Under the pieces are notes generated by a model. The model was not told where the DNA came from. It saw nothing but the letters and a program-made list of their open reading frames with translations, and searched no databases. The position numbers were made by a program, and so were the translations under genes. Source: a virus. Taken from it: 33,269 bases of DNA. How positions within the stretch are numbered: the stretch's first letter is position 1; every line of letters begins with the position of its first letter. The stretch lies in IMG/VR virus record IMGVR_UViG_3300005512_000177; one strand, given 5' to 3'. Shown one piece after another: positions 3,921 through 30,902 of the stretch.

Positions 3921-3953
3921 CCTATTATAACACACCACGCACAAAACTGCCTA
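3921..3953 (-). promoter_or_regulatory. sigma70-type extended -10 promoter for 3508..3906 (weak -35)
   Basis: The minus strand reads CTAGGCAGTTTTGTGCGTGGTGTGTTATAATAGG, i.e. TGT-TATAAT (-10 at 3929-3924) with TAGGCA 18 nt upstream. It shares the GTGTTATAATAG core with the three promoters below. Confidence 0.5.
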
Positions 3954-4251
3954 GATGATTCCTGTGATGCTGATGATGGCGGGTCATATTACCACGCCTA
4001 TAACGCACCTCACAATTGCCCAGGTCCCACCCCGCATCGATGTTCTTGCGCGTTAAAATCAAATTCTCCGCTGACCTCCCACGCTGACGCCAACGATCCA
4101 GGCTCCACAGCTGACACCACTGATCCAGGGTCAATGACCAGGGCTCACCTCTATAACGCGCCTGGCAGCGACTACGCAGGAACGCCAAGCGCCTGGCCCG
4201 TAGCTCAGGATCTGGCCCTGACTTCCATAGATGCGGTCTCGAACGTTTCAT
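3925..4251 (-). CDS. Basic hypothetical protein, putative DNA-binding; paralogue of 3024..3506
   Basis: Internal ATG (M67, MKRSRPHLWKSGPDPE...) of track ORF 3925..4449. The paralogue alignment starts there, and the upstream 66 codons overlap the lipoprotein ORF and an RNA hairpin and look non-coding. Confidence 0.55.
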   Translation of the reverse strand: MKRSRPHLWKSGPDPELRARRLAFLRSRCQARYRGEPWSLTLDQWCQLWSLDRWRQRGRSAENLILTRKNIDAGWDLGNCEVRYRRGNMTRHHQHHRNHLGSFVRGVL

Positions 4252-4264
4252 AATCTTCACACGC

Positions 4265-4309
4265 CCCACCCTTTGGAGCACACCCTGACTTATAAACAGG
4301 GCGGGTGGG
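4265..4309 (-). other. Nested stem-loop between the lipoprotein gene and 3925..4251
   Basis: Plus-strand CCCACCC (4265-4271) pairs with GGGTGGG (4303-4309). An inner CCCTG (4283-4287) pairs with CAGGG (4297-4301). No U-tract follows on the coding strand. Confidence 0.4.
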
Positions 4310-4324
4310 ACGCTGATGTATTTA

Positions 4325-4513
4325 TTACTTACTAGTTGGTAATGGTCGATAATTGGGATCACACCAATGCTCCCGAGGCGTGTTGGGATGGACGTTGGGA
4401 CACACTGGATCAGGATTGGTTGAACAGGATGCCAACAAAATGACCACACAGATCATCAGCACCCTGCCCAAACTTGTGCCTATGCTTGCCTTTTTATATT
4501 CAAACAATGCCAT
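4325..4513 (-). CDS. Small proline-rich lipoprotein (Rz1-like o-spanin or Llp/Cor-like superinfection-exclusion lipoprotein candidate)
   Basis: Track ORF of 62 aa. It has a basic n-region (KK, R), a hydrophobic core VLMICVVILL and the lipobox LLAS|C at Cys30. The 33-aa mature part CSTNPDPVCPNVHPNTPREHWCDPNYRPLPTSK has 8 Pro and 2 further Cys. A consensus promoter sits directly upstream. Confidence 0.6.
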   Translation of the reverse strand: MALFEYKKASIGTSLGRVLMICVVILLASCSTNPDPVCPNVHPNTPREHWCDPNYRPLPTSK

Positions 4514-5324: not shown

Positions 5325-5527
5325 GCCCCCTTACACACCTTACAACACCATCAGAAATGGTCAGAAAGGTGGGCTGGATCACCAAAACAACCTAATATGG
5401 GCTGATCTACCCCTAATATGGTAATTTCCAAACTTTTTTTCCAGGGGGTGCCAATCCGGATAATACACAACTACCTAATCAACCCAACTCACCAAAATAA
5501 CACCCCTCTATGCCCTAGCAATCGCCA

Positions 5528-6151
5528 TCATTCTGGGTCTGGAACACGGTCCAATCTTGCCCGCAAACGCTCACTCCTCTGCTGGCTACTACCTGTTATA
5601 CCACGGTCCGCACACAGCTGATCATACAATCGCCTGAACTGCGCGACCCTACACTCCCAACCTGGTTCAACTGGCACTTGGATGCTCACCGATATCAATT
5701 CCTTGCGATCACCATCTTCCGTTCCCCAATTGATCCAATCACGATCTATCGCCAGATTAATGCTGGCGGTCTTGTCCTCATACTCCCTGACCCTCTGCCA
5801 TTGGTCCAACTTCGATCTAACACGATGACGCCATTCGTTATCTATCATATCACCTCGGTTCCTACGCAACGACTTCAGCACGCTGGCACAATCATCACTA
5901 CCTGCGAACCAATTGATCCAATACTCACCCTTGGGCACCATCCCAGCCCTGTGGGTGGCCTTCTTCTTGACACTACGGAAAACTCGCTTCATCACGTCCT
6001 GCTGGCCCAATCCCATCAACACCTGGTTCTGACGCAACTGGTCTTCCAACCAGAACCTATCAATCAGATACACATACTTGCTGAGGTTGTTATCAACCCA
6101 GACCTGGCTGAACAGCCCATGGTCCAAACGCCTACTTCGCTTCATCAGCAC
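5528..6151 (-). CDS. Hypothetical protein (207 aa, Trp/Arg-rich)
   Basis: Track ORF. It overlaps the end of 6132..6737 by 20 nt (14 nt if M3 is the start). No motif recognised. Confidence 0.6.
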   Translation of the reverse strand: MLMKRSRRLDHGLFSQVWVDNNLSKYVYLIDRFWLEDQLRQNQVLMGLGQQDVMKRVFRSVKKKATHRAGMVPKGEYWINWFAGSDDCASVLKSLRRNRGDMIDNEWRHRVRSKLDQWQRVREYEDKTASINLAIDRDWINWGTEDGDRKELISVSIQVPVEPGWECRVAQFRRLYDQLCADRGITGSSQQRSERLRARLDRVPDPE

Positions 6152-6737
6152 CCCCCTTCTCGGGCATCACTATCTCATACACGCCCTTGACTATCTTGTT
6201 CCGGCACCAATGCTGGGTCTTGGCCGCGGTCTCTTCCTGATCAACACACCAATCACCATTCATCAAAAACACGTGCTTCCTGATCGACACCAGATACCAT
6301 TGATCTGCCCGCAACTTCAGGTCCTTTACGGCCATGGCCTTCAATCCAACATCAACCAACTTGGCCCCAACGAAATGTCCGAAACCATGGCTTACCTCGA
6401 CCAGACCATTATCTGTCGCACCAGCCCAGGTGCCACCTTTATTCCAATAGGCCCTGATATAATCGAACACAATATCGAACCTCACACCTGTGTAATAACT
6501 CACCGCATACACACCGCAATAGCCCATCGATGGCTGGTAAAGGCTCTCCCTGTAATGGGCTTCTAGTTTCCCCTTGCCCAGGCACAACCTGGCACCCTTG
6601 CCATTCAGCCCCAACTGATCACCCCTACCTGGGGCATCCTTCAACAACTTGACGCTCTTCAACCTGGTGTTCTTGTCTATGTTCTTCAACATGGCCTCTG
6701 CTACACCAACGGCATCCTTTAACTTACTCTTGTTCAT
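6132..6737 (-). CDS. Papain-fold / C39-like cysteine peptidase candidate
   Basis: This is track ORF 6132..6779 with the start moved to ATG 6737 (MNKSKLKD...). That ATG is preceded by AAGGAG at 7 nt, whereas the longer N-terminus overlaps the promoter -10. Motifs are 'YQPSMGYCGVYAVSYYTG' (Gln...Cys nucleophile context) and 'RKHVFLMNGD' (His then Asn/Asp), as in C39/CHAP-type peptidases. Confidence 0.5.
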   Translation of the reverse strand: MNKSKLKDAVGVAEAMLKNIDKNTRLKSVKLLKDAPGRGDQLGLNGKGARLCLGKGKLEAHYRESLYQPSMGYCGVYAVSYYTGVRFDIVFDYIRAYWNKGGTWAGATDNGLVEVSHGFGHFVGAKLVDVGLKAMAVKDLKLRADQWYLVSIRKHVFLMNGDWCVDQEETAAKTQHWCRNKIVKGVYEIVMPEKGGADEAK

Positions 6738-6767
6738 ATATTTCTCCTTTTTGTTTGTCATACTACT

Positions 6768-6795
6768 ATAATAACACACATACTGGATCCGTCAA
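6768..6795 (-). promoter_or_regulatory. Near-consensus sigma70 extended -10 promoter for 6132..6737
   Basis: The minus strand reads GGCTTGACG-GATCCAGTATGTGTGT(16)-TATTAT-AG, with TG at the extended -10 position. Confidence 0.7.
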
Positions 6796-6845
6796 GCCAT
6801 CACCGGGCATTTAGAATGCCCATAGCACAACACTTTTTTTGGGGA

Positions 6846-7961
6846 TTATATTTTTTTCTTGGCCGCTAACAGGTTTTTCCTATTACCAACATACTGGAAG
6901 GTGGCAGTGACCCTACCGAAACCCTTGACGCTGTCCTTGGTCAGCTCCGTGATCCCATGGCTGACCACATACTCGACCTTGTTACACAACCTGAAGTCTG
7001 GATCCCGCGACCTGGCCGCTATGAAGGCTGGATGGCTGGTGATCGCCTTCACTATGAAACCCTGCTGGGTGTAATGACGCATTATGGTCTTGGTGGCCAC
7101 TGCGCCTATGCCCACGCCCTGGTAATCGGGCAACACCACACTGCGGTGCCCCCTGATCACATTCTTCTTCTTGCCCATATTGTCCTTGACATAAGCGAAG
7201 AAGCCTGCTGGCTCACCATTGGCCAGAGCGATATAACACTCGGCCTGGCTGACCAGATTACGATTTAGATAATGATGCTCTCGGAACAACCTCCAGGCAG
7301 AACTATGACACCTTTTGATGTCAAGGTTGATCCTGGGTCGCCGAAGACGCTCCCGCGTGAATTTCGCTTGATCCACATAATACACCCAATCGGGTTCCAA
7401 CCATTCCAGGATGTCATAATGACAACTCAAAAGGACCATTCGCTTATTCCTACGCCTCGCAGTCTTGGCGAAGGCACAACTGCCTATCTTGGCCACATTA
7501 CGATCTATCACACTGGTGAATTCATCCACCACTATGGTATCCCTATCATCAAACAACAGCCTGGCCATCTCGACCCTGAAACGCTGACCATTGCTCAAGG
7601 TGTGGTAAGGCTGGAGCCAGCTGGGCGGACTGCTGAAACCCACACTGCTCAACACCTTGGTGATCTCCTCCGTGGTCTCGCTTTCTGGGAACGCGTCCAA
7701 CACGCTCCGATCCCTGGGCCAATCATCATAGCCCTCGTGATAATTTGACGCTCCAAAGCCCACGCGACCAATACTGGTCTTGCCCGCCCCGGATGGACCA
7801 ACTATCACACCAATGTTCCAATCCATATCCTCGATGGGGATATCCACCTGCCATTGCTTCTTCAACTTGCTCTCTGGACTGAGGTCAAACAGACCTTCAA
7901 CCTTGGTGCTCCTGAAACTCCTATTGTAATCGGTCTCTACTATATGGTTAAAACTCGGCAT
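6846..7961 (-). CDS. ABC-type ATPase (soluble NBD) fused to a C-terminal GNAT acyltransferase domain
   Basis: Track ORF of 371 aa; ATG 7961 is preceded by GGAGAAGAA. NBD motifs: Walker A GPSGAGKTS, ABC signature-like LSNGQRFRV, Walker B TIVVDEFTS, H-loop LLSCHYD. C-terminal half: WRLFREHHYL...GFFAYV...RSVVLPDYQGVGIG, which is GNAT motif A (Q/RxxGxG/A). Confidence 0.75.
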   Translation of the reverse strand: MPSFNHIVETDYNRSFRSTKVEGLFDLSPESKLKKQWQVDIPIEDMDWNIGVIVGPSGAGKTSIGRVGFGASNYHEGYDDWPRDRSVLDAFPESETTEEITKVLSSVGFSSPPSWLQPYHTLSNGQRFRVEMARLLFDDRDTIVVDEFTSVIDRNVAKIGSCAFAKTARRRNKRMVLLSCHYDILEWLEPDWVYYVDQAKFTRERLRRPRINLDIKRCHSSAWRLFREHHYLNRNLVSQAECYIALANGEPAGFFAYVKDNMGKKKNVIRGHRSVVLPDYQGVGIGAVATKTIMRHYTQQGFIVKAITSHPAFIAARSRDPDFRLCNKVEYVVSHGITELTKDSVKGFGRVTATFQYVGNRKNLLAAKKKI

Positions 7962-8467
7962 TTCTTCTCCAATTCTTCTGTGACATATCTGTGTAATTCC
8001 TTCTGCTGACCCTCGCTCTCACAATCAACAACCAACTCGAAAGTGGTTGGTTCTATCTTCTGGGTATCGCTGATGGCGAGGTCCGTCAAAATGTTCTCGA
8101 TCTCCTGCTGACTGAAACCGGTTGGGTTGTCATCAAGGTCCGCCAACTCCTGCTTCAACAGCTCCGGATCCCATTTGCTGTCCTCCTGGCTCCTGTTATC
8201 CAAAATCCTATACTCCTTGGCCTGTTCATCCGATCCCTTGAACCTGACCACTGGCACCTCTGCCATCTTAAGATGCTTGGCCGCACGCCATCTCGCGTGA
8301 CCCGCCACTATGACATTATTATGATCAATCACAATGGGCTGTTGGAATCCATAAGCCTGGATGCTCTCTGCCACCACCAAAACCGTGGCATCGTTCCTAC
8401 GGCTGTTCAACTGGTATGGTCGCACCTGGTCGGTGGCCATGGTCTCTAGAACCAACTCTGACGACAT
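7940..8467 (-). CDS. ParB/sulfiredoxin-like nuclease-domain protein (paralogue 2)
   Basis: Track ORF of 175 aa; AAAGGA lies upstream of ATG 8467. Motifs are 'VRPYQLNSRRN', 'GFQQPIVID', 'VAGHARWRAAKHL' and 'YRILDN', colinear with 8446..8970. Confidence 0.75.
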   Translation of the reverse strand: MSSELVLETMATDQVRPYQLNSRRNDATVLVVAESIQAYGFQQPIVIDHNNVIVAGHARWRAAKHLKMAEVPVVRFKGSDEQAKEYRILDNRSQEDSKWDPELLKQELADLDDNPTGFSQQEIENILTDLAISDTQKIEPTTFELVVDCESEGQQKELHRYVTEELEKKCRVLTI

Positions 8468-8970
8468 TTCTTGAATCCTTTCTGTTTGATACGGGTCTCC
8501 ACCTGATCCATATCCTCACGACTATCACACTGGACTATGATGTGGTGCTTCCTGTTGTGCTGGTGATCCTTGCCTATCAATCCCAATTCCGGGAACAGGA
8601 TATCGTCCAACTCCTTCAATCTGAAACCGGTGGCCTCCACATCTGGCAGGCTCTCGATCTCCTTCTTGAGATCAACGACATCCCAACGGGTGAAATCATG
8701 GGCCTTGTTGTCCATTATACGGTAAGCCCTGGCCTGTTTCTCATCCAGGTCAGCCACTATCACAGGCACTTCAGTGAAACCCAATTCCTTGGCGGCCGCA
8801 TATCTGGTATGGCCCACCACTATGGTCATCGATCCATCAACCACTATTGGTTGATTGAAACCATATTTCTTTATACTGGTCTTGACCTTGTCTATGGTAT
8901 CAATATTCCTACGGGGATTATGGGGATAAGGTTTTATTTCATCGATTGGTTTCTTGACTATATCCATCAT
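8446..8970 (-). CDS. ParB/sulfiredoxin-like nuclease-domain protein (paralogue 1)
   Basis: Track ORF of 174 aa. Motifs are 'IKPYPHNPRRN', 'GFNQPIVVD', 'VVGHTRYAAAKELG' and 'YRIMDN', typical of the ParB N-terminal (ParBc) domain. No ParA partner and no obvious HTH/dimerisation region. Confidence 0.75.
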   Translation of the reverse strand: MMDIVKKPIDEIKPYPHNPRRNIDTIDKVKTSIKKYGFNQPIVVDGSMTIVVGHTRYAAAKELGFTEVPVIVADLDEKQARAYRIMDNKAHDFTRWDVVDLKKEIESLPDVEATGFRLKELDDILFPELGLIGKDHQHNRKHHIIVQCDSREDMDQVETRIKQKGFKKCRQSWF

Positions 8971-9110
8971 ATCCCTTTCAATTGGAGTGAGCTGTATGGC
9001 TCACCGGATCCTAGGATGGATCCAATTTAGTCGGTTAGTTCTGCAAGGAATTATCGACCAACTCACTCCTTCTATATTTACACAGAACTGATCACAACAC
9101 ACATCCTTTA

Positions 9111-9128
9111 GGGTCTTCACGAAGACCC
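9111..9128. repeat. Inverted repeat GGGTCTTC-AC-GAAGACCC
   Basis: Perfect 8-bp arms read by eye. It is followed by a second hairpin, AGAAAT-N11-ATTTCT (9129-9151), and a T6 run. Confidence 0.7.
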
Positions 9129-9195
9129 AGAAATTCGCTACGCTCATTTCTTTTTTTCCAATTGGCTAACTCTCTTTATGTAGATTGAACTCATA

Positions 9196-9217
9196 ATTCG
9201 GCTATCTCTAGCCGAAT
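9196..9217. repeat. Inverted repeat ATTCGGCTA-TCTC-TAGCCGAAT
   Basis: Perfect 9-bp arms with a 4-nt loop. A further hairpin, GATACT-N7-AGTATC, lies at 9225-9243. Confidence 0.7.
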
Positions 9218-9555
9218 CATTTGGGATACTTTATGTGAGTATCACTCATCTGTAAGTCGCTGTCTAAACCAGGCGGTAAGGCTATACCTGTTCGCTCATT
9301 CTATCCTACGCGATCTAATCCATCCTGCTTACAATCATTATGGATCAAACTGGTGTTGCTTTTTCTCAGAGCACCATCATTTATTTTTAACAATCTCCTA
9401 ACGGGATTCACCTGTCGCTTTTCAGCCGCATTTCCCTGGACTTTACACTGCCTATCTATTGAAATTAAATGGAGCCTATTCCTTGCCTATACATCTATTT
9501 ATAGCGTATTTTTAAAAGCCTATTATTTTTAAATACAAACGGTGGTTTGTATCCC

Positions 9556-9575
9556 AATGAGATCTTACTCTCATT
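9556..9575. repeat. Inverted repeat AATGAGA-TCTTAC-TCTCATT
   Basis: Perfect 7-bp arms, about 40 nt upstream of ATG 9613. Confidence 0.65.
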
Positions 9576-9612
9576 CTCCAGCAAGCCACCTTCCACATTT
9601 TAAATAACCTAT

Positions 9613-10170
9613 ATGCTAATATGGTTCAATCATCCTTCGGTGGCCGGCATCGCCACCACACTACCCCTACAACCCAATGAAATTGGTTGTAACTATTTCT
9701 ATCAAATCAGGCCTACCGCACACATCGTGGTCTATGATCCACAAACCCGCGATCTCATTACCAAAGATACCAAAAACACCAAAATGTTCAATACCACTTT
9801 CTGGGCCAAAAACGGCTTTAAGACAGCATTTTTCAAAGAAGTCATCACTCCCACCAGGTTAAGGCCACAGGATTCTGGCACACTGGCCATCGCCCTGGCC
9901 CTATGGCATCTATCAGCAAAGGACATCACAATCATTGGATGTGGATGGCACAAAAATGACACATCAAGCCTATTCGATCAATACTACACACACAAAAAAG
10001 GGGCCAGCAAGATATCAAACCCTAAACTGAAATTGCTACGCAATTATCAATCTGAATTCAACATCAAGATTAGATTTGTATCTGATACTATTATAGATCC
10101 GGCGTTCGACCACCTGACGATCGAAGATCTATCCATCTCAAAGACCGCTGATATTTCCTATCTAAAATAA
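9613..10170 (+). CDS. Compact glycosyltransferase-like protein (GT42 / CstII-like sialyl- or Kdo-type transferase motifs); the only plus-strand gene
   Basis: Track ORF of 185 aa, which is long for AT-rich DNA. The motifs 'WFNHPSVAG', 'GCNYFYQ', 'DSGTLAIALALWHLSAKDITIIGCG' and 'THKKG' are colinear with GNGPS, CNQFY, TSG..A.AIALGYKEIYLSGID and GHSK as I recall them from Campylobacter CstII. No Shine-Dalgarno is present. Confidence 0.45.
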   Translation: MLIWFNHPSVAGIATTLPLQPNEIGCNYFYQIRPTAHIVVYDPQTRDLITKDTKNTKMFNTTFWAKNGFKTAFFKEVITPTRLRPQDSGTLAIALALWHLSAKDITIIGCGWHKNDTSSLFDQYYTHKKGASKISNPKLKLLRNYQSEFNIKIRFVSDTIIDPAFDHLTIEDLSISKTADISYLK

Positions 10171-10272: not shown

Positions 10273-12639
10273 TTACGACACCGTGAAGGTTGCCGCACTG
10301 GCGTAATCACTTCTCCTATCTAACTCGTTACGCGAGGCGACCCTGATGTCCCATTGGTCTCCAGCACTGACTGGTCCCCATATAAACTCTGTATCGTTGG
10401 TCAGCCCAACGGTATAATAAGTCGAATCAGCGGCCCTCTTGACCTGGACGATATACTCCGTGGTGAATGGATCCGTTGATGCGGTCCAAGTGATATCCAA
10501 TTGTTCATCAGCTGTATAACCACTACCTGATAACGCGGTGCTCTGCGATACACTGATATTGGTCGGTGGGCTGACCAACAACGGATTAGGAAGATTTATC
10601 GTTGGCTTAGGTGCGGCCGCCGCCTGACCATCCAACACATAATCAGCACTATTATGTTCCGTAGCAACGAAACCTAAATCACCCCCAGCATTCATATTGA
10701 TACTTTCTATCCTGAACACACCATCAAAATTTAGATTCTTATTCTGGAGCCTGACGAGATCACCAACACTGACATCTGTCACAGCACTGGTGGTAGAAAA
10801 TTGGACAGCCATCTTGTTCCTACTGGTCTTGACCAATGTCTCGGCGATGTTCAACGCCCTCTCTCTATTCGCACAATGAGGCATAGCAACTTCCTTATCC
10901 AGCGGGATGTCATTGTCTTCTAGCAAATAATTGGCATACACACTACTATCCGAAGGTGGCCAGAACACATCATTAGGCTGGTAATCAGCATCAGGATCAG
11001 TATAAGTGACCCTCAATTGGTTTATCTTACGACTTTTACTTTCACCCTGGATCCTTAAACCACCAACCAACACATCTTCATCTATTATCTTGACCACTGG
11101 CGGTGGGTTTGGTGCGGCATCAATGTCCGCGATATTGCCCCCATGGGGAATTTTCAAGAAATACTTCCCAGCCTGGTATGGCATTATACCATTAAAGCTG
11201 GCCAATATACTCCTCACATTATTCAACAGGCTTTCTGAGGTCTCCAGCACACCATCAAACACACTGAACTTGCCCGTTGTGGTAGTGGTGTATGGCACCG
11301 TCTGATCACACTGCTGTGCGGCCAAAGCGATACTATCCCAATCAAAATAATCATTGGTCAGACCTTTTCCATAAATTGGATTACGCAAAAAATCAACCAA
11401 CACATTCACTGGGTTGTTATTATAGACTTCCGTCTCATCAGCATATGCGGTCGAATGCGCAACCGTGCTGGTGGTCGGTAATTCAACAGACCAAGAAATC
11501 GATCCACAAGGATCTGGTCCCTGCGACCCAGTAAAAGGTCCCACCGTTGAAGTCAATTGTATTTGGTATGTGCCAATTGCTGGGATCACTATATCTTCAT
11601 CAATGAAAGAAGTGGCAGGAGTGCTATCAGTAGTCGTCGCTGAATTATAAGGCCTACCATCAGTGTTACTATTGAAGATTTCTTGTGTTGGACCAGCATC
11701 GGTCCTATACACAGCATAATTCGTCACTACCGTTAGCAAATCACCTGGCGTGTTATCCCTAGCACTAGCGGTATTAACCATTTTTATTTTGACCAAAGCA
11801 TTGGTGCTCGTTGTGGTAAGGAAAATATTACCCGTATAATTTCCTCCCCTGGTCAGCGGAATCGGTGGTCTCGTGACATTGGTTCCATTAGCATAATTGC
11901 CCGTGTAACCTACCGTGCTCGTGGTATCACTTGGCCCACCATTATTGGCATTAGTGATTGTTCCATCAAAATTCTGTGAATAACCAGACAATACATTGAA
12001 AACTTTCTTGCCTTGGATCCTTACCTGGATTTTAGGTATTCCTGATCTATAAGGATTATTATCAGCGTCCTCTTGGTTCTCGATCTTCTTCCATCTAAAC
12101 CTACAAGCCAAATAAGCCACACCTCTCAACCTATGGTTGGTGCCCCATCCTGGTGCTTCCTGTAGCAGTGTTGATACCGTCTGGTCTTCCCTACCATCGA
12201 AGAATTGTGTGATCAACCTATCCTGATACGGACCAGAACTTGGTGATCCCTGGACCCCATGGGCGTAACTGCTGACCACTACCTCTTCATCATCAATGAA
12301 AATTTGATCGATACCCTGGACCTGACCCTCACAAATGGCCAAAGCCACATAAAGGTATTCATTGTCCGTGCCATTGGTCGAAACGAACACCCGATAACCA
12401 CCAACACGCCTTTGCCCATAAATCACAGGTATATTACCCACACCAGAATCCTTGTTCAATAATGGACCTAGGATCTGGTTATTGACTTGCCCTGCGGTTA
12501 AATCACCACCACCCATTGAAGGCATAGCGAAAGGTGAAGCGACTATATCAACAACCGCCTTGACCGTATCAGTGACAAAATCTATGGCATCATCAACAAA
12601 ATCTTTTACCTTATCAAAAAATTTCTTATGGAACGGCAT
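10273..12639 (-). CDS. Tail tip / host-specificity protein (lambda J - GTA g15 family) with C-terminal fibronectin-III-like domain
   Basis: Track ORF of 788 aa, the last gene of the tail module. 'IPVIYGQRRVGGYRVF...YLYVALAICEG' is the hallmark N-terminal motif of J-like proteins. The C-terminus 'LDITWTASTDPFTTEYIVQVK...WDIRVASRN' is FN3-like. Confidence 0.75.
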   Translation of the reverse strand: MPFHKKFFDKVKDFVDDAIDFVTDTVKAVVDIVASPFAMPSMGGGDLTAGQVNNQILGPLLNKDSGVGNIPVIYGQRRVGGYRVFVSTNGTDNEYLYVALAICEGQVQGIDQIFIDDEEVVVSSYAHGVQGSPSSGPYQDRLITQFFDGREDQTVSTLLQEAPGWGTNHRLRGVAYLACRFRWKKIENQEDADNNPYRSGIPKIQVRIQGKKVFNVLSGYSQNFDGTITNANNGGPSDTTSTVGYTGNYANGTNVTRPPIPLTRGGNYTGNIFLTTTSTNALVKIKMVNTASARDNTPGDLLTVVTNYAVYRTDAGPTQEIFNSNTDGRPYNSATTTDSTPATSFIDEDIVIPAIGTYQIQLTSTVGPFTGSQGPDPCGSISWSVELPTTSTVAHSTAYADETEVYNNNPVNVLVDFLRNPIYGKGLTNDYFDWDSIALAAQQCDQTVPYTTTTTGKFSVFDGVLETSESLLNNVRSILASFNGIMPYQAGKYFLKIPHGGNIADIDAAPNPPPVVKIIDEDVLVGGLRIQGESKSRKINQLRVTYTDPDADYQPNDVFWPPSDSSVYANYLLEDNDIPLDKEVAMPHCANRERALNIAETLVKTSRNKMAVQFSTTSAVTDVSVGDLVRLQNKNLNFDGVFRIESINMNAGGDLGFVATEHNSADYVLDGQAAAAPKPTINLPNPLLVSPPTNISVSQSTALSGSGYTADEQLDITWTASTDPFTTEYIVQVKRAADSTYYTVGLTNDTEFIWGPVSAGDQWDIRVASRNELDRRSDYASAATFTVS

Positions 12640-23158: not shown

Positions 23159-24406
23159 CTATACTCCTGTTGCTCCTGTTTGAAAGTTGAATCTCTGGGG
23201 CTCCACATTCATTTGTTTCTTGGTTATTGGATACAAGAAACTGATCAAATAACCTAAAGAATCGTTTGCGTGATCCCATCCTTCATCCTTTGTTGGCAGG
23301 TTAGTTCCGGCCTTGTAAGTATGCCTGATTAAACTATTTATTAGGGCTTTACACTTAGGGTCTATAACTACACCTCTTATACCCATGGCACTACACAGCT
23401 TACTATTAACACTATTGATCCTATCACGGATACTCATATGCCTGCTTGGCATTTTCAATATGAAACCATTGTTCTGTAAGATCGAAGCATCAGTCCTCCT
23501 AGCACTACTGGTTCGCCTCTGTCTTGCCGCTGGATCAGGATAAGCAAATATTTTTTTGCCAGGATAACGCCTTAAAATCTCCTCACACATCTCATCCGTG
23601 TTGGAACTCCATATCTGTATTTCATCAAACACATAAACGATGTTGTCCTTGATATATGACACGGTAGCAAACATTGGATTGAGGTTAAAGTCAATACCAA
23701 TATGGACAGCAGTGACATCCTCTGGCACCGCAACATTCTTAACATTATGTTTCATATCGAACCCATAATATATCACACCAGAATAAGTTTCAAAAGTGGC
23801 CTGATACTCCTGGCGAAATGTCTTGGCATCTAGATCTTTTTTAGCTTGTTCTATCTCCTCGTCAGGAACCATACCTCCATCAATAGTGGTATATTGCCAA
23901 CTCTGCCAATTTTCATCTGTGGTCTTTTGCCCCTGTTGATATAGATCGTGGAACCAATTCAAACCCTTTGGGGTTCCTGTAAAAAAAACGTGGCCACCTG
24001 TGTCTGACAATGTTGGTCTCAACACTTCTTTCCAGGCCGATTCTGATATGTCAGCGGTCTCATCTAGCACTAAAAAATTTAGACCAACACCACGAAGTGA
24101 GTCCGGATTATCAGCACCTCTTAGGCATATCCTACTGCCATTACGAAGATGTAAAGTCAATTCTGCTTCGTTGGCCTTCTTAATCCAATTGAGGTCATTC
24201 AGCATTTTTTTAATCTGAACCCATACTACCTGCTTGGCCTGTCTATATGATGGGGCAACATACCAACAAAGTTGATTTGGTTGCCGGGCGAAATATGCCA
24301 ACTGCCTGATTGCTAAAAAAGTTTTTCCGAAGCGTCGGCCTGTCACAAGCACTTTGAATCTAGCGGGATGATCTGCGACTTCCTTCTGAGGTAAAGATAA
24401 TTTCAT
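23159..24406 (-). CDS. terL: Terminase large subunit
   Basis: This is track ORF 23159..24424 (TTG start). ATG at 24406 (MKLSLPQKE...) is preferred because it forms a TAATG overlap with the TerS stop. Motifs: Walker A-like 'VTGRRFGKT', Walker B 'FLVLDETAD', and a C-terminal nuclease region with 'GIDFNLNP' and 'DHANDSLGY'. Confidence 0.85.
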   Translation of the reverse strand: MKLSLPQKEVADHPARFKVLVTGRRFGKTFLAIRQLAYFARQPNQLCWYVAPSYRQAKQVVWVQIKKMLNDLNWIKKANEAELTLHLRNGSRICLRGADNPDSLRGVGLNFLVLDETADISESAWKEVLRPTLSDTGGHVFFTGTPKGLNWFHDLYQQGQKTTDENWQSWQYTTIDGGMVPDEEIEQAKKDLDAKTFRQEYQATFETYSGVIYYGFDMKHNVKNVAVPEDVTAVHIGIDFNLNPMFATVSYIKDNIVYVFDEIQIWSSNTDEMCEEILRRYPGKKIFAYPDPAARQRRTSSARRTDASILQNNGFILKMPSRHMSIRDRINSVNSKLCSAMGIRGVVIDPKCKALINSLIRHTYKAGTNLPTKDEGWDHANDSLGYLISFLYPITKKQMNVEPQRFNFQTGATGV

Positions 24407-24711
24407 TAAGCATCTTCTGGCCAAGGTAAAGGATCATTGCTTTCAGTTTCTGTTGGTGAATCCTGTTGAGAAAGATAATTTTTTCCTAAGAATATTAACA
24501 TCCTTACATCCTTATCCTTGACCGCTTTTTCATATTGCGCCCTTCTCAAACCCTTTTTACCTTCTGCTCTGCCTTTTTCAATCACATCTTTGTATCTCTT
24601 CTTGAGATTATCAACACTGGTGTCCATCACCATCGCGATCTCTTCGTAACTACACATTATCAGTGCCAGTCTTTCAATCATATCTTTATCAAGTTTGTAT
24701 GACTTCGCCAT
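24406..24711 (-). CDS. terS: Terminase small subunit
   Basis: Track ORF of 101 aa directly upstream of TerL. It has an HTH-like 'CSYEEIAMVMDTSVDNLKKRY' and 'MLIFLGKNYLSQQD', typical of small terminases. Confidence 0.65.
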   Translation of the reverse strand: MAKSYKLDKDMIERLALIMCSYEEIAMVMDTSVDNLKKRYKDVIEKGRAEGKKGLRRAQYEKAVKDKDVRMLIFLGKNYLSQQDSPTETESNDPLPWPEDA

Positions 24712-25058
24712 TATAATGTTTTCTCCGCTACTATTATTCTAAAACTTCTTGCGTCAGTATCGCCCTGTGTAGTGACGATCGTTACTTTGACCGTATATGT
24801 ATTTTGTGCGGTGCCATTATGGACTCTTACACTGACCACTTTACCCGAACTTATTATAACATCTGTGTTTGCGTCTGTAGGTAATGCCAAAGGTGATAGA
24901 TCACCTGATATTGTGCTGATGCTGACACTAGCAGATAAAATGCTGTCTCCACTAGCGAGGTAATCGGTAAAATCTAATCCATATTGGATGTTACTATCTG
25001 GATCTTTGACAAAATATAATCCAGCGTTATCCTTTCGTGCGCCTGTTAAGTTTGCCAT
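24711..25058 (-). CDS. Small Ig-like fibre/tail-associated protein
   Basis: Track ORF of 115 aa. The pattern 'VKDPDSNIQYGLDFTDYLASGDSILSASV...YTVKVTIVTTQGDTDARSFRIIV' matches a family I recognise next to fibre genes in many phages (KDP...LDY.FDWS..L..GDTI...). Confidence 0.5.
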   Translation of the reverse strand: MANLTGARKDNAGLYFVKDPDSNIQYGLDFTDYLASGDSILSASVSISTISGDLSPLALPTDANTDVIISSGKVVSVRVHNGTAQNTYTVKVTIVTTQGDTDARSFRIIVAEKTL

Positions 25059-27145
25059 TACGCCTCACTCCTTACTCTTGGAGTTGTAAATCTTGATGAT
25101 AATGCTGGTATTTTCAATTTGATACTCCTTGTTTCTTCTGGGACTAAAACTGTCCTTGTTTCTGCTGTTATCATATTTACTTTATTTTCACTATCAACTA
25201 AAGTTATTCTATTTTCACTTACTGGCGATAATTGCCTGGTTTCACTTTCAACCTTTATTATATTGAAAGGATCTGCCTGGAAGAATAATCGTCCCACCAA
25301 TACTGTGCTGTGAAGAGCTGTAATTGCCGTCGCCGCACCGTGTATGAAAGATGGTATCGTTTCTGATGTTGAAACTATTACGGTAGTATCTATCGCTCCA
25401 CTTGGTTTGAACGACGGCTCTACATCTACCACTGCGAATGTTCCACTTATGTCAGCAAATGTGTCAGTTATCGCAGAAGCAGTCAATACAGGTGAAAAGG
25501 CCCCTGTGATTGAAACTGGTGTGTCAGAAAGTGTAAATTGGTAATTTCCTATCAATGTTGGCGTGAATGCCGTTGTGATATCACACTCAAATTCTAAAAT
25601 ACCACCAGCATCACAAGCCACTGAAGCAGTGCTTGAAATTTCCACATTAGCCGCTTTTTCAAAAGCACTATTTTCATCTATAGTAAATGTGCCAGCGAAT
25701 GTTACAATTTCAGTTCCTACTTTGAATGAAGGACTGATTGTCATTTCTACTTCATTTGCTAATTCAAATTCTCTATCCCAAGTATCTTCTGGCCAATTAT
25801 CCCAACCTGATTCATCACCTAACCAAGTCAGCACAGGCCAGTTTTCCCAATCAGTCGTTGCTAGGAAATCCCAAGTGTATTCACCTTCATTCAACGAGAA
25901 GTTATCTACAGCGAAACCAGTCTCGAAATATGTGTTTAAGTTGAACGAATTCCAAGTGTAATCACCTGCGATATCATAGATCATACTAGCGGTGGTTGTC
26001 ACCGTGTGAGCCGGTGCTATATTGAAGTTGGTATCAATTAATCCGTGAATTTTGTTACCATCAATTGATGAAGTAAATGCTGAACTGATAATGCTGTCTG
26101 AAAAAACCAAGTTAGCATATGAAAGAGTAGCATCAAAAAGAACTGTGGTATCTATTCCTGTGTCAAATTTTAAATTACTTTGATTGGTGGTTGAACTTGT
26201 TATAACAATATTGCTCCCACTAAATTTTCTATTTGCGGACTGCTCACTGATGCTGACTACTGAGCTGATAGATGCCTCACCTTGGAATGCTACGGTTGGA
26301 ACTACATCCATACTTGCCGTAGTAGATATTTCACCAATCGTATCACTGCCTACACCATCAATCGTATATAAATTGGCCTCCCAACTCCTCTGAACGGTGC
26401 CTTTGAAATATATCTTTGGTTCATATGAACCACCAGGATTCGTTATGGGTTCTAATCTCAATCGCACCATACCCCAATTTGCTGTCATAGAGGGAGATGA
26501 GAAATCTAATACGAATCCTTTGCCTATGTGTCCAGTCAATTCACCACCTGTGACACTGCTTCCCTGTGAAGTGAATGTAATGGTTGCTCCACCATTACCA
26601 TCTAACGGACTTGAGGCCGTTATTGTCTGATTGAAATTGGCAGCAGTCAAATTCTGTATAAAATTACTATTACCACCACCACTCTTACCATTTTCTGTGT
26701 AGAAAAAATCAAAACTAGTTGGCACCACATAACCACCATTCAATGTGGTGTGTGTTACCTTAACACGCGGAACATATTGACCAGTTACAACCGCTCTACA
26801 TTTAGAGCTTGTCAAAACTGCGTCTAATGAAGTCCTAGGATCCCTGTTGTCTAGATCCGCCTGAATTGCTTTTATACCCGAATTCTGTCTGTTGGGCGCT
26901 GCCGTGGCCGCGGCTTCTGTGGCACCTGCTCCATAAGCTGGTGTGTTGATGCCAGTGATATTATTGTATGCGAAGAATGACCAGCTTGACCCATCATCAT
27001 CATAATGGGACAGCGTAGAGGTTCCACTATCATCTACACTTTCATCTGTGGGTGTGATACTATAGATGTAGTAATTTAAGTCTGTGGGTGTGGTAGTCCT
27101 ATTACCCTGACCATCTACATATATGAATTGTTTTGTATCAGACAC
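25058..27145 (-). CDS. Large structural (fibre/side-fibre-like) protein, 695 aa
   Basis: Track ORF with a GTG start. It is T/S/N-rich beta-type sequence with a Trp/acidic patch (TWDFLATTDWENWPVLTWLGDESGWDNWPEDTWD) and a C-terminal oligo-repeat. Confidence 0.6.
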   Translation of the reverse strand: MSDTKQFIYVDGQGNRTTTPTDLNYYIYSITPTDESVDDSGTSTLSHYDDDGSSWSFFAYNNITGINTPAYGAGATEAAATAAPNRQNSGIKAIQADLDNRDPRTSLDAVLTSSKCRAVVTGQYVPRVKVTHTTLNGGYVVPTSFDFFYTENGKSGGGNSNFIQNLTAANFNQTITASSPLDGNGGATITFTSQGSSVTGGELTGHIGKGFVLDFSSPSMTANWGMVRLRLEPITNPGGSYEPKIYFKGTVQRSWEANLYTIDGVGSDTIGEISTTASMDVVPTVAFQGEASISSVVSISEQSANRKFSGSNIVITSSTTNQSNLKFDTGIDTTVLFDATLSYANLVFSDSIISSAFTSSIDGNKIHGLIDTNFNIAPAHTVTTTASMIYDIAGDYTWNSFNLNTYFETGFAVDNFSLNEGEYTWDFLATTDWENWPVLTWLGDESGWDNWPEDTWDREFELANEVEMTISPSFKVGTEIVTFAGTFTIDENSAFEKAANVEISSTASVACDAGGILEFECDITTAFTPTLIGNYQFTLSDTPVSITGAFSPVLTASAITDTFADISGTFAVVDVEPSFKPSGAIDTTVIVSTSETIPSFIHGAATAITALHSTVLVGRLFFQADPFNIIKVESETRQLSPVSENRITLVDSENKVNMITAETRTVLVPEETRSIKLKIPALSSRFTTPRVRSEA

Positions 27146-27174
27146 TCAAGCATCCCAGAAATGTTAAAGACTTA

Positions 27175-27684
27175 TTAGTCTAAACTAATAGCAAGGTTGC
27201 TGGCTGAAATCGTGAATTGGTCGCCTGAACTTACAGTTTTAGGCGTGGTCAAAGCACCGAAAAACAACACATTGCCACCTGAACTATTGTCCATAATTGC
27301 GATATGAGTTACTGTTGATCCATAACCAGCATCTGTGGTGTAATTTGCTCCTGCTACTGGAAATGAAACTTGTGTCGTATTTTTAATCTGACCTGTGTTG
27401 TATCCACCTGCTGAACCTGCCGCTCCGAATGTGACCGATTGTCTAACATACTGGGTTGAACCACCTGTTGTAATTTCAAAATCACCCCAATCCGATGCTG
27501 ATCCTGTAGCTGAAGTTCCTGATTCTAAAGCACCTGCTACATTATTGCTGTTATCGGCGAAAAGCGCCACATAAACAGTTGCTGGCGGTTGGTATCCCGC
27601 ACCTGTTCCTGCTGTAAGGCTACCATTGCCATATCTTAAAACGTGATTTAAAAGAGTGTCTTCTAAATAATTTGACGCTGACAT
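27175..27684 (-). CDS. Conserved fibre-associated protein
   Basis: Track ORF of 169 aa; AAAGGAGAC lies upstream. The pattern 'NYLEDTLLNHVL...VYVALFAD...YVRQSVTFGAA...VSFPVA...THIAIMDNSSGGNVLFFGALT...SGDQFTISASNLAISLD' matches a family widespread beside tail-fibre genes (N..EN.LL...F......Y.AL.T..P....G.EVSG..Y.R). Confidence 0.55.
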   Translation of the reverse strand: MSASNYLEDTLLNHVLRYGNGSLTAGTGAGYQPPATVYVALFADNSNNVAGALESGTSATGSASDWGDFEITTGGSTQYVRQSVTFGAAGSAGGYNTGQIKNTTQVSFPVAGANYTTDAGYGSTVTHIAIMDNSSGGNVLFFGALTTPKTVSSGDQFTISASNLAISLD

Positions 27685-27733
27685 AATTTTGTCTCCTTTG
27701 TAAATTTACAGTTTTATTTATTTGTTCAACAAC

Positions 27734-28276
27734 TTAACTTTCCAACTCGTATATTGTTATCGTGTATGAAGGAAAGTTGAAACCAAATCCACCACCTGGG
27801 CTCATAGATACCAATTGGGTCAATTGATTGCTTGAGAATGTGATGTTGCCAAGATTAGTGGCCGTGAAGTTGATTGGAATACCCCCAGTGTTTGTTGAAC
27901 GGGATCCTGAAAAAGTTGCTGAATTGGAGAATGAGAAGCCTGATGGCAGACTATTGACATTGGCGGCCTGCCCCACCCCAACCTGTGCGGAATAAGTGGC
28001 CGCTGAATTGGCACTATTGAAGGCCGTGGCACTTGAGATGCCAGTGATCTGGACATTGTAGGTGCCGTCCGCTATTGGTATCACCTTACCATTGGAGGTG
28101 CCCACTGGTGTGCCCGCTATGTTCAACTCATCTTTCGTAACATCAAAACTCGTGCTCATCATATTAGATCCAACAGCAGATCCACTCTTTCCACGAAGCA
28201 CTATCACGGTCTCCAATGGCACGAACGCCGCTGATGACGATGTGGTCAGTATGTTTCCCTTGAATCCTAATGGCAT
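27734..28276 (-). CDS. Hypothetical structural protein (180 aa)
   Basis: Track ORF, coupled 1 nt to the upstream fibre gene. S/T/N/G-rich. Confidence 0.5.
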   Translation of the reverse strand: MPLGFKGNILTTSSSAAFVPLETVIVLRGKSGSAVGSNMMSTSFDVTKDELNIAGTPVGTSNGKVIPIADGTYNVQITGISSATAFNSANSAATYSAQVGVGQAANVNSLPSGFSFSNSATFSGSRSTNTGGIPINFTATNLGNITFSSNQLTQLVSMSPGGGFGFNFPSYTITIYELES

Positions 28277-29112
28277 TATGTGGTGAAGTCCTGTGCTATG
28301 TTGCCAAGGTAATTGGTGCCATCATAGAACACGGATACCACATCAATGTCTCCCGCACCAGTTGAAAGTGTTGGTGCCCCACCTGGGAACTTGACGGAAG
28401 TGAATGAGCCAGTCCTTGAACCCGTGCCATCCTGTGTGATGATGATCATTATTGATTGTCCCGCAACCATATTTGATATGGTGAATGTGGCGTTGGTGGC
28501 CAGCGTGACCGTGTGGACTGGTGCCGTGCTGGCATCCACACTGATTGACGCTGAACTGGTAAGTGCGTTGATGTCCTCCTTGTAGCCCACATTGAATCTC
28601 ACTATGTCATCAAGGTCTATGGTGTCACCTGATGATTGTATGGTTGAATTGGTTATTGTTAGATCACCATTGCCATCATCAGTGATGTAGCCTGCGTCAT
28701 TAGTGAATGAACTGACGTTAGTTGGAGCACCCGTTAGGCTTGAATATGTGAAATCCTGTGCGGTGCCCGTGATGGTTAATGTATCACCTGATACTGCTGT
28801 GGTGATGCCCGTGGCTCCCGCTATCTTGAATGTCTCCCCTGGATTGACCGCCGTGCCAGTTGAGTCGTCACCCACGAATGTGGTGGCTGACACCGCTGAT
28901 CCAGTGGCGTCCGTGTCCAGCTCGAATCTCGAGTTTGAAGTGTTGTATTTGAGGACCTGTCCGTTGGTGGGACCATCTATGTTGAACATATCAATGATGG
29001 CATTGACGTTATCCACGTTCTGCTTGATGTCCGCCCGTGCTAAACGGGGTGAGTCAGAGCCTGAGTCAAGGTTGGCTGTTGATGCTTTTGTTCCTGTTGG
29101 CCAAGTCGCCAT
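28276..29112 (-). CDS. Tail fibre protein (278 aa) sharing shaft module and C-terminal tip domain with the large fibre
   Basis: Track ORF. It has a fibre-type N-terminus 'LDSGSDSPRLARADIKQNVDNVNAI' and the shaft module 'FVGDDSTGTAVNPGETFKIAGATGITTAVSGDTLTITG'. Its C-terminus 'HTVTLATNATFTISN...IITQDGTGSRTGSF...VVSVFYDGTNY' aligns with the C-terminus of the 1287-aa fibre. Confidence 0.75.
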   Translation of the reverse strand: MATWPTGTKASTANLDSGSDSPRLARADIKQNVDNVNAIIDMFNIDGPTNGQVLKYNTSNSRFELDTDATGSAVSATTFVGDDSTGTAVNPGETFKIAGATGITTAVSGDTLTITGTAQDFTYSSLTGAPTNVSSFTNDAGYITDDGNGDLTITNSTIQSSGDTIDLDDIVRFNVGYKEDINALTSSASISVDASTAPVHTVTLATNATFTISNMVAGQSIMIIITQDGTGSRTGSFTSVKFPGGAPTLSTGAGDIDVVSVFYDGTNYLGNIAQDFTT

Positions 29113-29138
29113 AGTGTGTCTCCTTTTTCTGTATTTAA

Positions 29139-30893: not shown

Positions 30894-30902
30894 AGTGTCT
30901 CC

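Follow-up and report, generated by a model that had tools for sequence, protein, structure and literature searches.

A conserved phage module pairing short ParB-like proteins with an ABC ATPase::GNAT fusion: a candidate system for ATP-coupled acylation of phage DNA

A cluster of minus-strand genes at positions 5528..8970 of a viral DNA stretch of 33,269 nucleotides (IMG/VR record IMGVR_UViG_3300005512_000177; the whole stretch is called the window below) encodes two short ParB-like proteins, ParB1 and ParB2, a fusion of an ATP-binding cassette (ABC) ATPase with a GNAT domain (ABC::GNAT), and two further proteins, orf201 and orf207. Reading of the window and its relatives places the module in a siphovirus-like phage or prophage of aquatic metagenomes. 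The ParB and ABC::GNAT proteins are obligately linked and constitute one functional unit. We tentatively propose that this unit performs ParB-assisted, ATP-coupled and acyl-coenzyme A (acyl-CoA)-dependent acylation of phage DNA late in infection, a reading to which we assign a little less than an even chance of being correct.

All the minus-strand open reading frames (ORFs) named in the original prediction, an earlier reading of the sequence alone, are present. The ParB1 (8446..8970, minus strand; 174 amino acids, aa) and ParB2 (7940..8467, minus strand; 175 aa) genes overlap by 22 nt, as do those of ParB2 and ABC::GNAT (6846..7961, minus strand; 371 aa). About 100 loci encoding homologues of the fusion (80 from IMG/VR plus others, a few of them near-duplicates) were scanned with hidden Markov models (HMMs) on stop-to-stop segments. 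ParB linkage could be evaluated in the 88 loci with at least 650 nt of upstream sequence, and 85 of them (97%) have a same-strand ORF with a ParB_N domain within 2.5 kb upstream of ABC::GNAT. In 74 of these 85, the end of the ParB gene overlaps the ABC::GNAT start or lies within 10 nt of it, and two or more ParBs are found in 15 loci of the same scan. Moreover, single ParB::ABC::GNAT polypeptides of 558–623 aa occur among the best 150 family representatives (11 cases), with a full-length ParB forming the first ~190 residues (E 1e-26 to 1e-48). The near-universal adjacency, the frequent gene overlap and the single-polypeptide fusions indicate that ParB and ABC::GNAT act together, in agreement with the earlier proposal that the ParBs are partners of the ATPase::GNAT protein.

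The two enzymatic halves can also be separate. In Salmonella phage SSU5 and Rhizobium phage RHph_N1_15, the gene order is ParB, ParB, a 212-aa ABC protein, a small ORF and a protein of ~295 aa; the latter proteins align with the GNAT half (hhalign E 3e-4 and 1.6e-3) over the W…HY and R-x-V-V…Y-[QR]-G-[IV]-G motifs. The gene for the large terminase subunit (TerL) lies ~2.9 kb after the ABC gene in RHph_N1_15, and the cluster is at the end of the linear record in SSU5. Streptococcus phage MismyG likewise has one annotated gene for the ABC part and another for the GNAT part. Javan523 (locus L002, 5001..6070) and other S. pyogenes prophages have a split frame, with an ABC part of 225 aa and a GNAT part of ~89 aa that tblastn matches in two pieces; decay into a frameshifted pseudogene, programmed frameshifting and a true division into two genes would each account for this. 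In a Corynebacterium diphtheriae prophage (locus L091, 5426..7796), ABC::GNAT is located between two proteins of ~190 aa, the downstream one of which weakly matches ParB_N (E 0.001), so the ParB partner can lie after the enzyme. The T4-like Aeromonas phage PX29 (locus L088, 3896..7046) encodes ABC::GNAT (PX29p085) amid uncharacterised genes. No Pfam ParB match was found in the scanned flanking proteins PX29p083, 084, 086 and 087, and PX29p083, two genes downstream, gives a borderline N6_Mtase match (E 5e-4).

The amino-terminal half of the fusion (residues 1–205; 7347..7961, minus strand) matches ABC_tran (PF00005) at 34.1 bits, against a cut-off of 25. It contains the Walker A motif GPSGAGKT (7776..7799), the ABC signature LSNGQ (7584..7598), Walker B TIVVDE (7521..7538, with Asp146 and Glu147), a D-loop SVIDR (7500..7514) and an H-switch CH (7419..7424, Cys180 and His181), all on the minus strand. 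These motifs and GNAT motif A do not vary among 39 aligned homologues, the most distant at 44% identity, and by this measure both enzymatic halves retain their catalytic motifs. An AlphaFold2 model of the 371-aa fusion has a mean predicted local distance difference test score (pLDDT) of 84.5 and a predicted TM-score of 0.78; in Foldseek searches with it, the amino-terminal half is closest to the ABC nucleotide-binding domains of WzmWzt, MalK, MetN, HlyB and SufC (E ~1e-7). The ABC nucleotide-binding domain originally described is thus supported by profile, motifs and fold. The domain is compact and atypical, since the 39-sequence alignment contains no invariant Q-loop glutamine between Walker A and the signature; its helical subdomain is cut down to ~60 residues.

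The ABC half is soluble. There is no transmembrane-like segment in any protein of the module or its neighbours, with no hydrophobic segment of a module protein reaching a value of 1.6, which bears out the earlier remark that a membrane partner is missing, and the gene lists and annotation tables examined for related loci contain no permease. Identity as an ABC transporter was ruled out on these grounds: the locus has neither a transmembrane domain nor a permease gene. Some homologues outside the window carry additional sequence. An intein (Hom_end_hint plus LAGLIDADG homing endonuclease) is inserted just after Walker A in homologue P0249 (715 aa), such a site in conserved phage enzymes being a frequent one for inteins. 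In P0272 (807 aa) and P0342 (755 aa), the profile is matched in two or three stretches, which may reflect insertions; the amino-terminal ~540 residues of P0272 have no Pfam match.

The carboxy-terminal half (residues 206–371; 6846..7346, minus strand) matches Acetyltransf_1 (PF00583) at 33.0 bits, against a cut-off of 20.7. GNAT motif A (HRSVVLPDYQGVGIG; 7104..7148, minus strand) includes the Q-G-x-G-x-G pyrophosphate-binding loop, which is typical of GNATs that use acyl-CoA. The motif has the form H272-R-x-V-x-L-P-D-x-Q-G-x-G-x-G286, in which Q281-G-V-G-I-G286 is invariant; across the 39 homologues, His272, Arg273, Pro278, Asp279, Gln281, Gly282, Gly284, Gly286, His310 and Pro311 do not vary. 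In the model, this half has the canonical GNAT order b1-a1-b2-b3-b4-a3-b5-a4-b6-b7. It is predicted to be a genuine acyl-CoA-type GNAT, and the original assignment to this fold holds.

The GNAT subfamily is less easily placed. A profile of the GNAT half compared with solved structures gave nothing specific (SpeG, E 0.13; NAT10, E 0.74), and the fold search with the full-length model left the subfamily unplaced because ABC nucleotide-binding domains dominated its matches. In TmcA/NAT10, an ATPase is coupled to GNAT acetylation of cytosine N4 in RNA (ac4C). Like the fusion, these enzymes have a P-loop ATPase amino-terminal to an acetyl-CoA-dependent GNAT in one polypeptide. However, TmcA combines a RecD-like, helicase-type ATPase with DUF1726 and a tRNA-binding domain and acts on RNA, while the fusion has an ABC ATPase, no RNA-binding domain and a ParB partner. 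Membership of the TmcA/NAT10 family was rejected on the ABC-type ATPase, the absence of any TmcA-type Pfam domain, the NAT10 E-value and a weak TmcA match (2zpa, TM 0.28, rank 12 in the fold search). Mom of phage Mu, cited in the original prediction as a protein with a predicted GNAT-like fold, has been demonstrated to belong to the GNATs and to acylate adenine at N6 in double-stranded DNA (dsDNA) (Nat Commun 2026, PMC13219725). It resembles the proposed system as a late phage enzyme of the GNAT superfamily acting on an exocyclic amine of dsDNA, but Mom stands alone and uses Gly-tRNA, with no ATPase or ParB, whereas the fusion retains a Q-G-x-G-x-G loop of the acyl-CoA type. Neither the profile search with the GNAT half, up to E 1, nor the fold matches listed included Mom (PDB 8BV8). 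Membership of the Mom family was rejected, there being no detectable homology to Mu Mom and an ATPase being fused.

The two ParB proteins each contain a ParB_N domain (PF02195; curated cut-off 26.3), with scores of 51.8 bits (8e-14) for ParB1 and 37.2 bits (3e-9) for ParB2. ParB1 consists of a ParB/Srx amino-terminal domain, a helical linker and a small carboxy-terminal domain. The two proteins are paralogous along their entire length, with 37% identity over 161 residues (E 4e-36), and both match phrog_620 over their full length (ParB1, 4e-47). No helix-turn-helix (HTH) was found in either, ParB_N being the only domain detected by Pfam and the scores staying under the TIGR00180 cut-off; no ParA-type family occurs among the called neighbours or the scanned proteins of the window. 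A pair of ParB/Srx-fold paralogues lacking ParA and HTH had been claimed, and this description proved accurate. Identity as a canonical ParABS partition ParB was ruled out, as neither a central HTH domain for binding parS nor, among the called neighbours and the scanned proteins of the window, a ParA partner gene was found. The amino-terminal domains align with the CTP-binding (CTPase) domain of Noc/Spo0J, with NPRR in ParB1 and NSRR in ParB2 at box I, GHTR and GHAR, respectively, replacing GERR of box II, and DN replacing EN at box III; they are predicted to be of the NTP-binding type. The proximal ParB of other clades scores higher against ParB2 than against ParB1 in 45 of 61 cases. ParB1, the one distal to ABC::GNAT, therefore looks like an extra copy, and ParB2 is, by these scores, likely the orthologue of the single ParB partner present in most other phages.

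A link to DNA is suggested by the relatives of these ParBs. Their residues ~2–130 match the amino-terminus of the phrog_498 DNA methyltransferases (E 1e-35 to 1e-37; ParB1, 2e-37), and they also match the amino-terminus of the PADLOC Type II methyltransferase model (MTase_II, PDLC03229) at 3e-21 for ParB1 and 5e-18 for ParB2. On these matches, the ParBs belong to the subfamily that forms the amino-terminus of phage DNA methyltransferases, which agrees with the statement in the original prediction that phage ParB-like domains are often tied to DNA-modifying enzymes. Fusions of ParB-fold proteins with methyltransferases are often seen in phages, and one with an acetyltransferase has been described from a bacterium (PMC12704722). 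The ParB::DNA methyltransferase fusions (phrog_498; PDLC03229) thus share with the module a ParB subfamily, the combination of ParB with a group-transfer enzyme and, in related streptococcal prophages, the slot before the terminase genes terS and terL. A donor-supply gene can accompany both: SAM synthetase with the methyltransferase fusions, and an aspartate decarboxylase or CoA-transferase-like gene with the module. They differ in that the enzyme of the module is an ABC ATPase::GNAT rather than a SAM methyltransferase, is predicted to be ATP-dependent and is usually separate from ParB.

Two further systems provide precedents. In 5mYOX176/ParB176 (PNAS 2026, PMC13229309), a short HTH-less ParB is likewise encoded beside a modifying enzyme, which there acts post-replicatively; ParB176, a phage ParB without DNA-binding domain, consists of a nucleotide-binding domain and a carboxy-terminal domain and is required for the activity of the thymine dioxygenase on dsDNA. 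Its partner is an Fe/2-oxoglutarate dioxygenase without ATPase, unlike the predicted ATP-coupled acyltransferase of the module. In the DpdA/DpdB 7-deazaguanine system, the ParB-like NTPase DpdB supplies nucleotide hydrolysis for a DNA-modifying enzyme (PMC12839542), but that system has a transglycosylase and no ABC domain and belongs to a bacterial defence island, while the module is a phage late gene with an acyltransferase. With a short HTH-less ParB beside or fused to a group-transfer enzyme in phage genomes, the module fits, as far as its sequences tell, the kind of ParB-assisted phage DNA-modifying enzyme, but with what would be a new enzyme, an ABC ATPase-coupled GNAT. The kinship between ParB and methyltransferases favours a DNA link of the module; that DNA itself is the acceptor we put at nearly, but not quite, an even chance.

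In other phages, the module is usually located immediately before the terminase genes. The prevailing gene order is ParB, ABC::GNAT, a small ORF and TerL, the small ORF being TerS in the two largest groups of loci (phrog_309). A TerL-like ORF starts at most 3 kb downstream in at least 33 of the 64 evaluable loci; this count is a lower bound, since TerL families are diverse and several known terminases were missed. Many family matches are found at contig ends or as gene 2 of a map. The module typically heads a late, packaging operon, and the label of early operon in the original prediction is therefore unsupported. The clade of the window, phage Jace and phages of the Mu-like and T4-like types depart from this order, their module not being near TerL. 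The tail-fibre genes precede ABC::GNAT in two Mu-like phages, phiE255 and Komp_PAO1_1; Mu carries mom after its tail-fibre genes. In Streptococcus phage Javan29, the slot before terS/terL is occupied by a SAM synthetase, a ParB::adenine methyltransferase and cytosine methyltransferases, while the matching slot of Javan523 holds ParB and ABC::GNAT. One representative outside the window, P0372 (856 aa), consists of ABC::GNAT followed by a region of ~525 aa similar to TerL (E 1e-9 to 1e-11 against the TerL of three loci); this single case may be a real fusion or an assembly or gene-calling artefact.

This synteny allows two explanations in which packaging, rather than DNA modification, is the purpose. 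In one, the module would be a packaging-coupled protein acyltransferase: ParB/ABC would track along the phage DNA and the GNAT would acetylate DNA-bound proteins, candidates being HU or other nucleoid proteins of the host and TerS, TerL or the portal of the phage, clearing or conditioning the DNA for terminase or regulating packaging. The position directly before terS/terL across very distant phages, the few loci without any ORF between module and TerL and the representative resembling an ABC::GNAT–TerL fusion would all fit, and protein acetylation is the commonest GNAT activity, HU being a known substrate of a GNAT. Set against this, module and TerL lie apart in the clade of the window, in the Mu-like phages, in the T4-like Aeromonas phage and in Jace, DNA methyltransferases fill the same slot in related phages, the lone TerL fusion may be an artefact, and the formyltransferase, aspartate decarboxylase and CoA-transferase-like neighbours described below are hard to square with simple protein acetylation. 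We regard this explanation as unlikely, though it is the strongest of the alternatives.

In the other, the module would be a mainly mechanical or regulatory packaging-initiation factor, in which a nucleotide-gated ParB clamp recognises a pac-like site, an ABC dimer bridges or clamps the DNA and the GNAT serves as a sensor of CoA or acyl-CoA instead of a transferase. Besides the terS/terL synteny, the loading of an ABC-type SMC ATPase on DNA by ParB is a known parallel, and ABC-only genes lie beside ParBs in the SSU5-like and Rhizobium phages. Yet a separate GNAT-like gene follows in these 'ABC-only' phages, the catalytic-site residues and motif A of the GNAT are invariant throughout the family, the neighbouring acyl and one-carbon enzymes point to chemistry and most loci already have a recognisable TerS, all of which makes such a role very improbable.

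The genes next to the module in several phages are informative in this respect. A Formyl_trans_N / phrog_9240 protein is encoded directly downstream of ABC::GNAT in Gordonia phage NHagos, Burkholderia phage phiE255 and Pseudomonas phage Komp_PAO1_1, and these formyltransferase-like proteins are related to one another across host phyla (E 1e-34 to 1e-76). In phage Jace and metagenomic relatives, an Asp_decarbox protein (2e-33) is directly downstream and is followed by a CoA_transf_3-like protein; the CoA-transferase-like proteins match the amino-terminal part of family III CoA-transferases (2e-8, 3e-5). Most loci, including the window, have no donor genes beside the module. The donor-supply and tailoring genes that do occur in other phages fit an acyl-transfer pathway. 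In Komp_PAO1_1 (locus L089, 6758..7933), the pair of ABC::GNAT and formyltransferase genes is followed, after ~1 kb and some opposite-strand genes, by one for an HI0933-like FAD/NAD flavoprotein (2e-63), which may be a further tailoring enzyme.

The original prediction also considered RNA or defence components as targets. The module could be an RNA-directed or anti-defence enzyme that acylates host tRNA, rRNA, aminoacyl-tRNA or a defence protein, with an ABC-F-like ATPase and a ParB that is a mere NTP-dependent regulator. Compared by sequence with solved structures, the ATPase comes closest to ABC-F proteins (New1, ExpZ and EttA; E 2e-6 to 6e-6), although these matches are short, ~40–70 residues round the signature, and stand alongside many transporter nucleotide-binding domains; ABC-F proteins also have two tandem nucleotide-binding domains and a linker, whereas the fusion has one. 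Precedents for such targets are TmcA, which couples an ATPase to a GNAT and modifies tRNA, and toxins of the GNAT type, whose substrate is aminoacyl-tRNA (PMC13219725). An obligate ParB partner of the DNA-methyltransferase-associated subfamily and a late-gene position unlike that of typical early anti-defence genes nevertheless speak against this reading, and PADLOC gives no match for ABC::GNAT beyond generic ABC. An RNA-directed or anti-defence role appears improbable to us.

For acylation of phage DNA, a mechanism can be proposed. The short HTH-less ParBs would be nucleotide-gated adaptors that associate with DNA and recruit or activate the enzyme on replicated phage dsDNA. Dimerisation of the ABC domains and ATP hydrolysis would supply the work needed to expose a base-paired exocyclic amine, much as the ATPase of TmcA/NAT10 does when ac4C is made in RNA; the GNAT would then move an acyl group from acyl-CoA onto the DNA. 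Where donor genes are absent, as in most loci including this one, the donor would be acetyl-CoA, a common acyl-CoA. Where an aspartate decarboxylase and a CoA-transferase-like gene follow, it could be an unusual acyl-CoA such as beta-alanyl-CoA, with beta-alanine being made and then loaded on CoA as a non-standard GNAT donor. Separately, a PurN-like enzyme may formylate the free amine of the transferred aminoacyl group; PurN itself formylates glycinamide ribonucleotide. The mark would be laid down late, before or during packaging, and might protect the DNA from host nucleases and/or change its charge. The orf201 and orf207 proteins would be accessory or tailoring proteins in this clade. We are more reserved about the specific version in which the module represents a hitherto unseen class of DNA hypermodification machinery. 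Here, an N-acyltransferase driven by ATP and dependent on acyl-CoA would attach acetyl groups, or more exotic acyl or aminoacyl ones (for example, beta-alanyl, later formylated), to dsDNA nucleobases shortly before packaging; this we consider possible, at about one chance in three.

Several points weigh against acylation of DNA. The commonest GNAT activity is acetylation of protein lysines or amino-termini, and we know of no module-carrying phage with acylated DNA. Specific similarity of the GNAT half to Mom or TmcA/NAT10 was not detected, the global TmcA match being as weak as noted above. The near-universal place before terS/terL could mean a role in packaging, not in modification. In the window, the module is away from the terminase genes, and orf201 and orf207 may form a separate transcription unit. 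Finally, N-acyl groups on adenine N6 are reportedly unstable (PMC13219725).

The family is large. From end to end, the fusion corresponds to phrog_11143 ('unknown function'; 2e-103). An exhaustive profile search of 1.84 billion representatives yielded 1041 clusters, formed at 50% identity, with E ≤ 1e-30; relaxing the threshold to E ≤ 1e-10 raised the number to 3276. With clusters formed at 90% identity, two word-indexed searches set lower bounds of 6895 and 7684. The rarity of the architecture implied by the original prediction is contradicted by these numbers. In every context examined, the family is of phage or prophage origin, and it is found beside terminase genes in phages whose hosts are Firmicutes, Actinobacteria, Proteobacteria, Bacteroidetes and spirochaetes. 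Carriers in Firmicutes are prophages of Streptococcus pyogenes, S. dysgalactiae and S. mitis, Lactococcus P335 phages and Oenococcus phages; other cultured carriers are phages of Gordonia, Rhodococcus and Arthrobacter, Burkholderia phiE255, Pseudomonas Komp_PAO1_1, phages of Porphyromonas, Leptospira and Nonlabens, Pseudoalteromonas SL25, and T4-like Aeromonas and Vibrio phages. Prophages of Corynebacterium diphtheriae, Amycolatopsis and Nonomuraea carry members as well. Homologues are annotated as 'hypothetical', 'ABC transporter' or 'ATP binding cassette-like protein'. Pfam, PHROGs, NCBIfam and PADLOC returned only generic domains or 'unknown function' for the module proteins, consistent with the earlier statement that the fusion was not recognised as a characterised system. 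A description of the ABC::GNAT family was not found by searching full-text literature, with an earlier mention in Krishnan et al. 2020 (NAR) or Iyer et al. 2013 being possible.

If the module does acylate DNA, it would constitute a second, mechanistically distinct route to GNAT-type DNA modification, of which Mom is, to our knowledge, the only known case, and the first instance of an ABC ATPase coupled to DNA modification. It would also explain what one of the larger phage protein families still lacking annotation (phrog_11143) does and extend the emerging rule of ParB-fold proteins as adaptors for DNA-modifying enzymes. Thousands of phages, including S. pyogenes and C. diphtheriae prophages and SSU5-like phage-plasmids, would then bear an undescribed DNA mark, and such an unknown acyl mark would be relevant to restriction and defence evasion, sequencing artefacts and phage engineering. 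Even with a protein target, a conserved ParB–ABC–GNAT machine tied to packaging would be new biology. Because several cultured phages carry the module, the question of the acceptor is directly testable.

The remaining two genes of the cluster are restricted to the clade of the window. orf201 (6132..6737, minus strand; 201 aa) is separated from ABC::GNAT by 108 nt; its start codon, ATG 6737, is preceded by an AAGGAG ribosome-binding site, and independent gene calls agree on 201 aa. orf207 (5528..6151, minus strand; 205 aa from ATG 6145) overlaps the end of orf201. Homologues of orf201 form only 7 clusters, all of which, where context was examined, are located downstream of ParB–ParB–ABC::GNAT. 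The relatives examined, at 67% and 44% identity, all have orf201 and an orf207-like gene after ParB–ParB–ABC::GNAT, so the five genes travel together in this clade. The two proteins were considered as paralogues, which was rejected because their sequences are unrelated. No family match was obtained for orf207 in Pfam, PHROG, NCBIfam or PADLOC.

The orf201 protein had been predicted to be a C39-like peptidase. Its homologue alignment has invariant Gln68-x5-Cys74, His121, His155 and Asp166, and its low-confidence model (pLDDT 68) places the cysteine at the start of a helix and the histidine and aspartate on strands, a papain-like layout. The Cys…His layout of the prediction is present in the sequence, as part of a Gln…Cys…His…Asp order, but no C39 profile or fold match was found. 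None of the 7 members has a Pfam match, even at E ≤ 10, and no PHROG or NCBIfam family was assigned. A fold search of the PDB gave 0.28 as the best E-value, with scattered weak papain-like matches to deubiquitinases, Josephin and ATG4; a viral fold library gave only uncharacterised phage proteins of 120–150 aa, the best from Sphingomonas phage Kharn (E 8e-8). orf201 is possibly a papain-like thiol enzyme, to judge from the model and alignment.

The proximity of an ABC domain to this protein had been seen as an echo of peptidase-containing ABC exporters, an idea that loses its footing without a C39 match. Were the module a remnant or variant of such an exporter (an ABC nucleotide-binding domain plus a C39 peptidase) secreting a peptide, the structural closeness of the ABC half to transporter nucleotide-binding domains and the C39-like residue order of orf201 would be explained. 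But there is no membrane domain at the locus or in the ~100 related loci, orf201 is confined to 7 clusters of one clade while ABC::GNAT has more than 1000, and the Q-loop glutamine, needed to couple to membrane domains, is not conserved. The exporter reading was rejected for want of a membrane partner across the family; we consider its probability close to negligible.

As for regulatory signals, the gap between ABC::GNAT and orf201 contains a promoter-like site, TTGACG-16-TATTAT (6768..6795, minus strand), identified by consensus match only. The site envisaged in the original prediction as a promoter for orf201 thus exists, but the number of such sites is no higher than in shuffled controls; the same holds for the terminator-like sites of the module region. 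A hairpin with a T-run after orf207 (5388..5404, minus strand), a pattern match only, is possibly the end of the transcription unit. Upstream of ParB1, an AT-richer intergenic region (8971..9612) extends to a divergent plus-strand ORF and contains a weak promoter-like site (9266..9238, minus strand) and a 12-nt inverted repeat (9193..9220). It is, from its sequence and position, likely the control region of the module; scans of it for tRNA genes and repeats gave nothing relevant. The divergent ORF beyond this 640-nt spacer (9613..10170, plus strand; 185 aa) is the sole sizeable one on the plus strand; it is kept in the JGI copy of the contig (locus L006) and has no family match.

Elsewhere, the window encodes a portal, a scaffold, a major head protein and a tape measure protein, as well as TerL (23159..24424), with a TerS candidate (24406..24711, minus strand; phrog_309, E 3.5e-4) directly before it. 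Tail genes, among them a J-like tail protein (10273..12639), precede the module. Upstream of the TerS candidate, the region 25058..33227 (minus strand) encodes a 695-aa protein without assigned function, a head-protein-like ORF and tail-fibre- or baseplate-like proteins; the order of the terminase genes relative to this region is atypical for a siphovirus. At 4325..4513 (minus strand), a 62-aa ORF with a hydrophobic amino-terminus and a lipobox-like LLASC may encode a small lipoprotein (a spanin or exclusion protein); it overlaps, in another frame, the start of a 174-aa ORF (3925..4449). The GC content is mosaic, being 0.50–0.54 at 28–32 kb, 0.47–0.53 at 3–9 kb, which includes the module, and 0.38–0.45 at 10–28 kb, the stretch of the head and tail genes. 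This mosaic suggests that the module region and the tail-fibre-like genes on the right have a history differing from that of the structural core.

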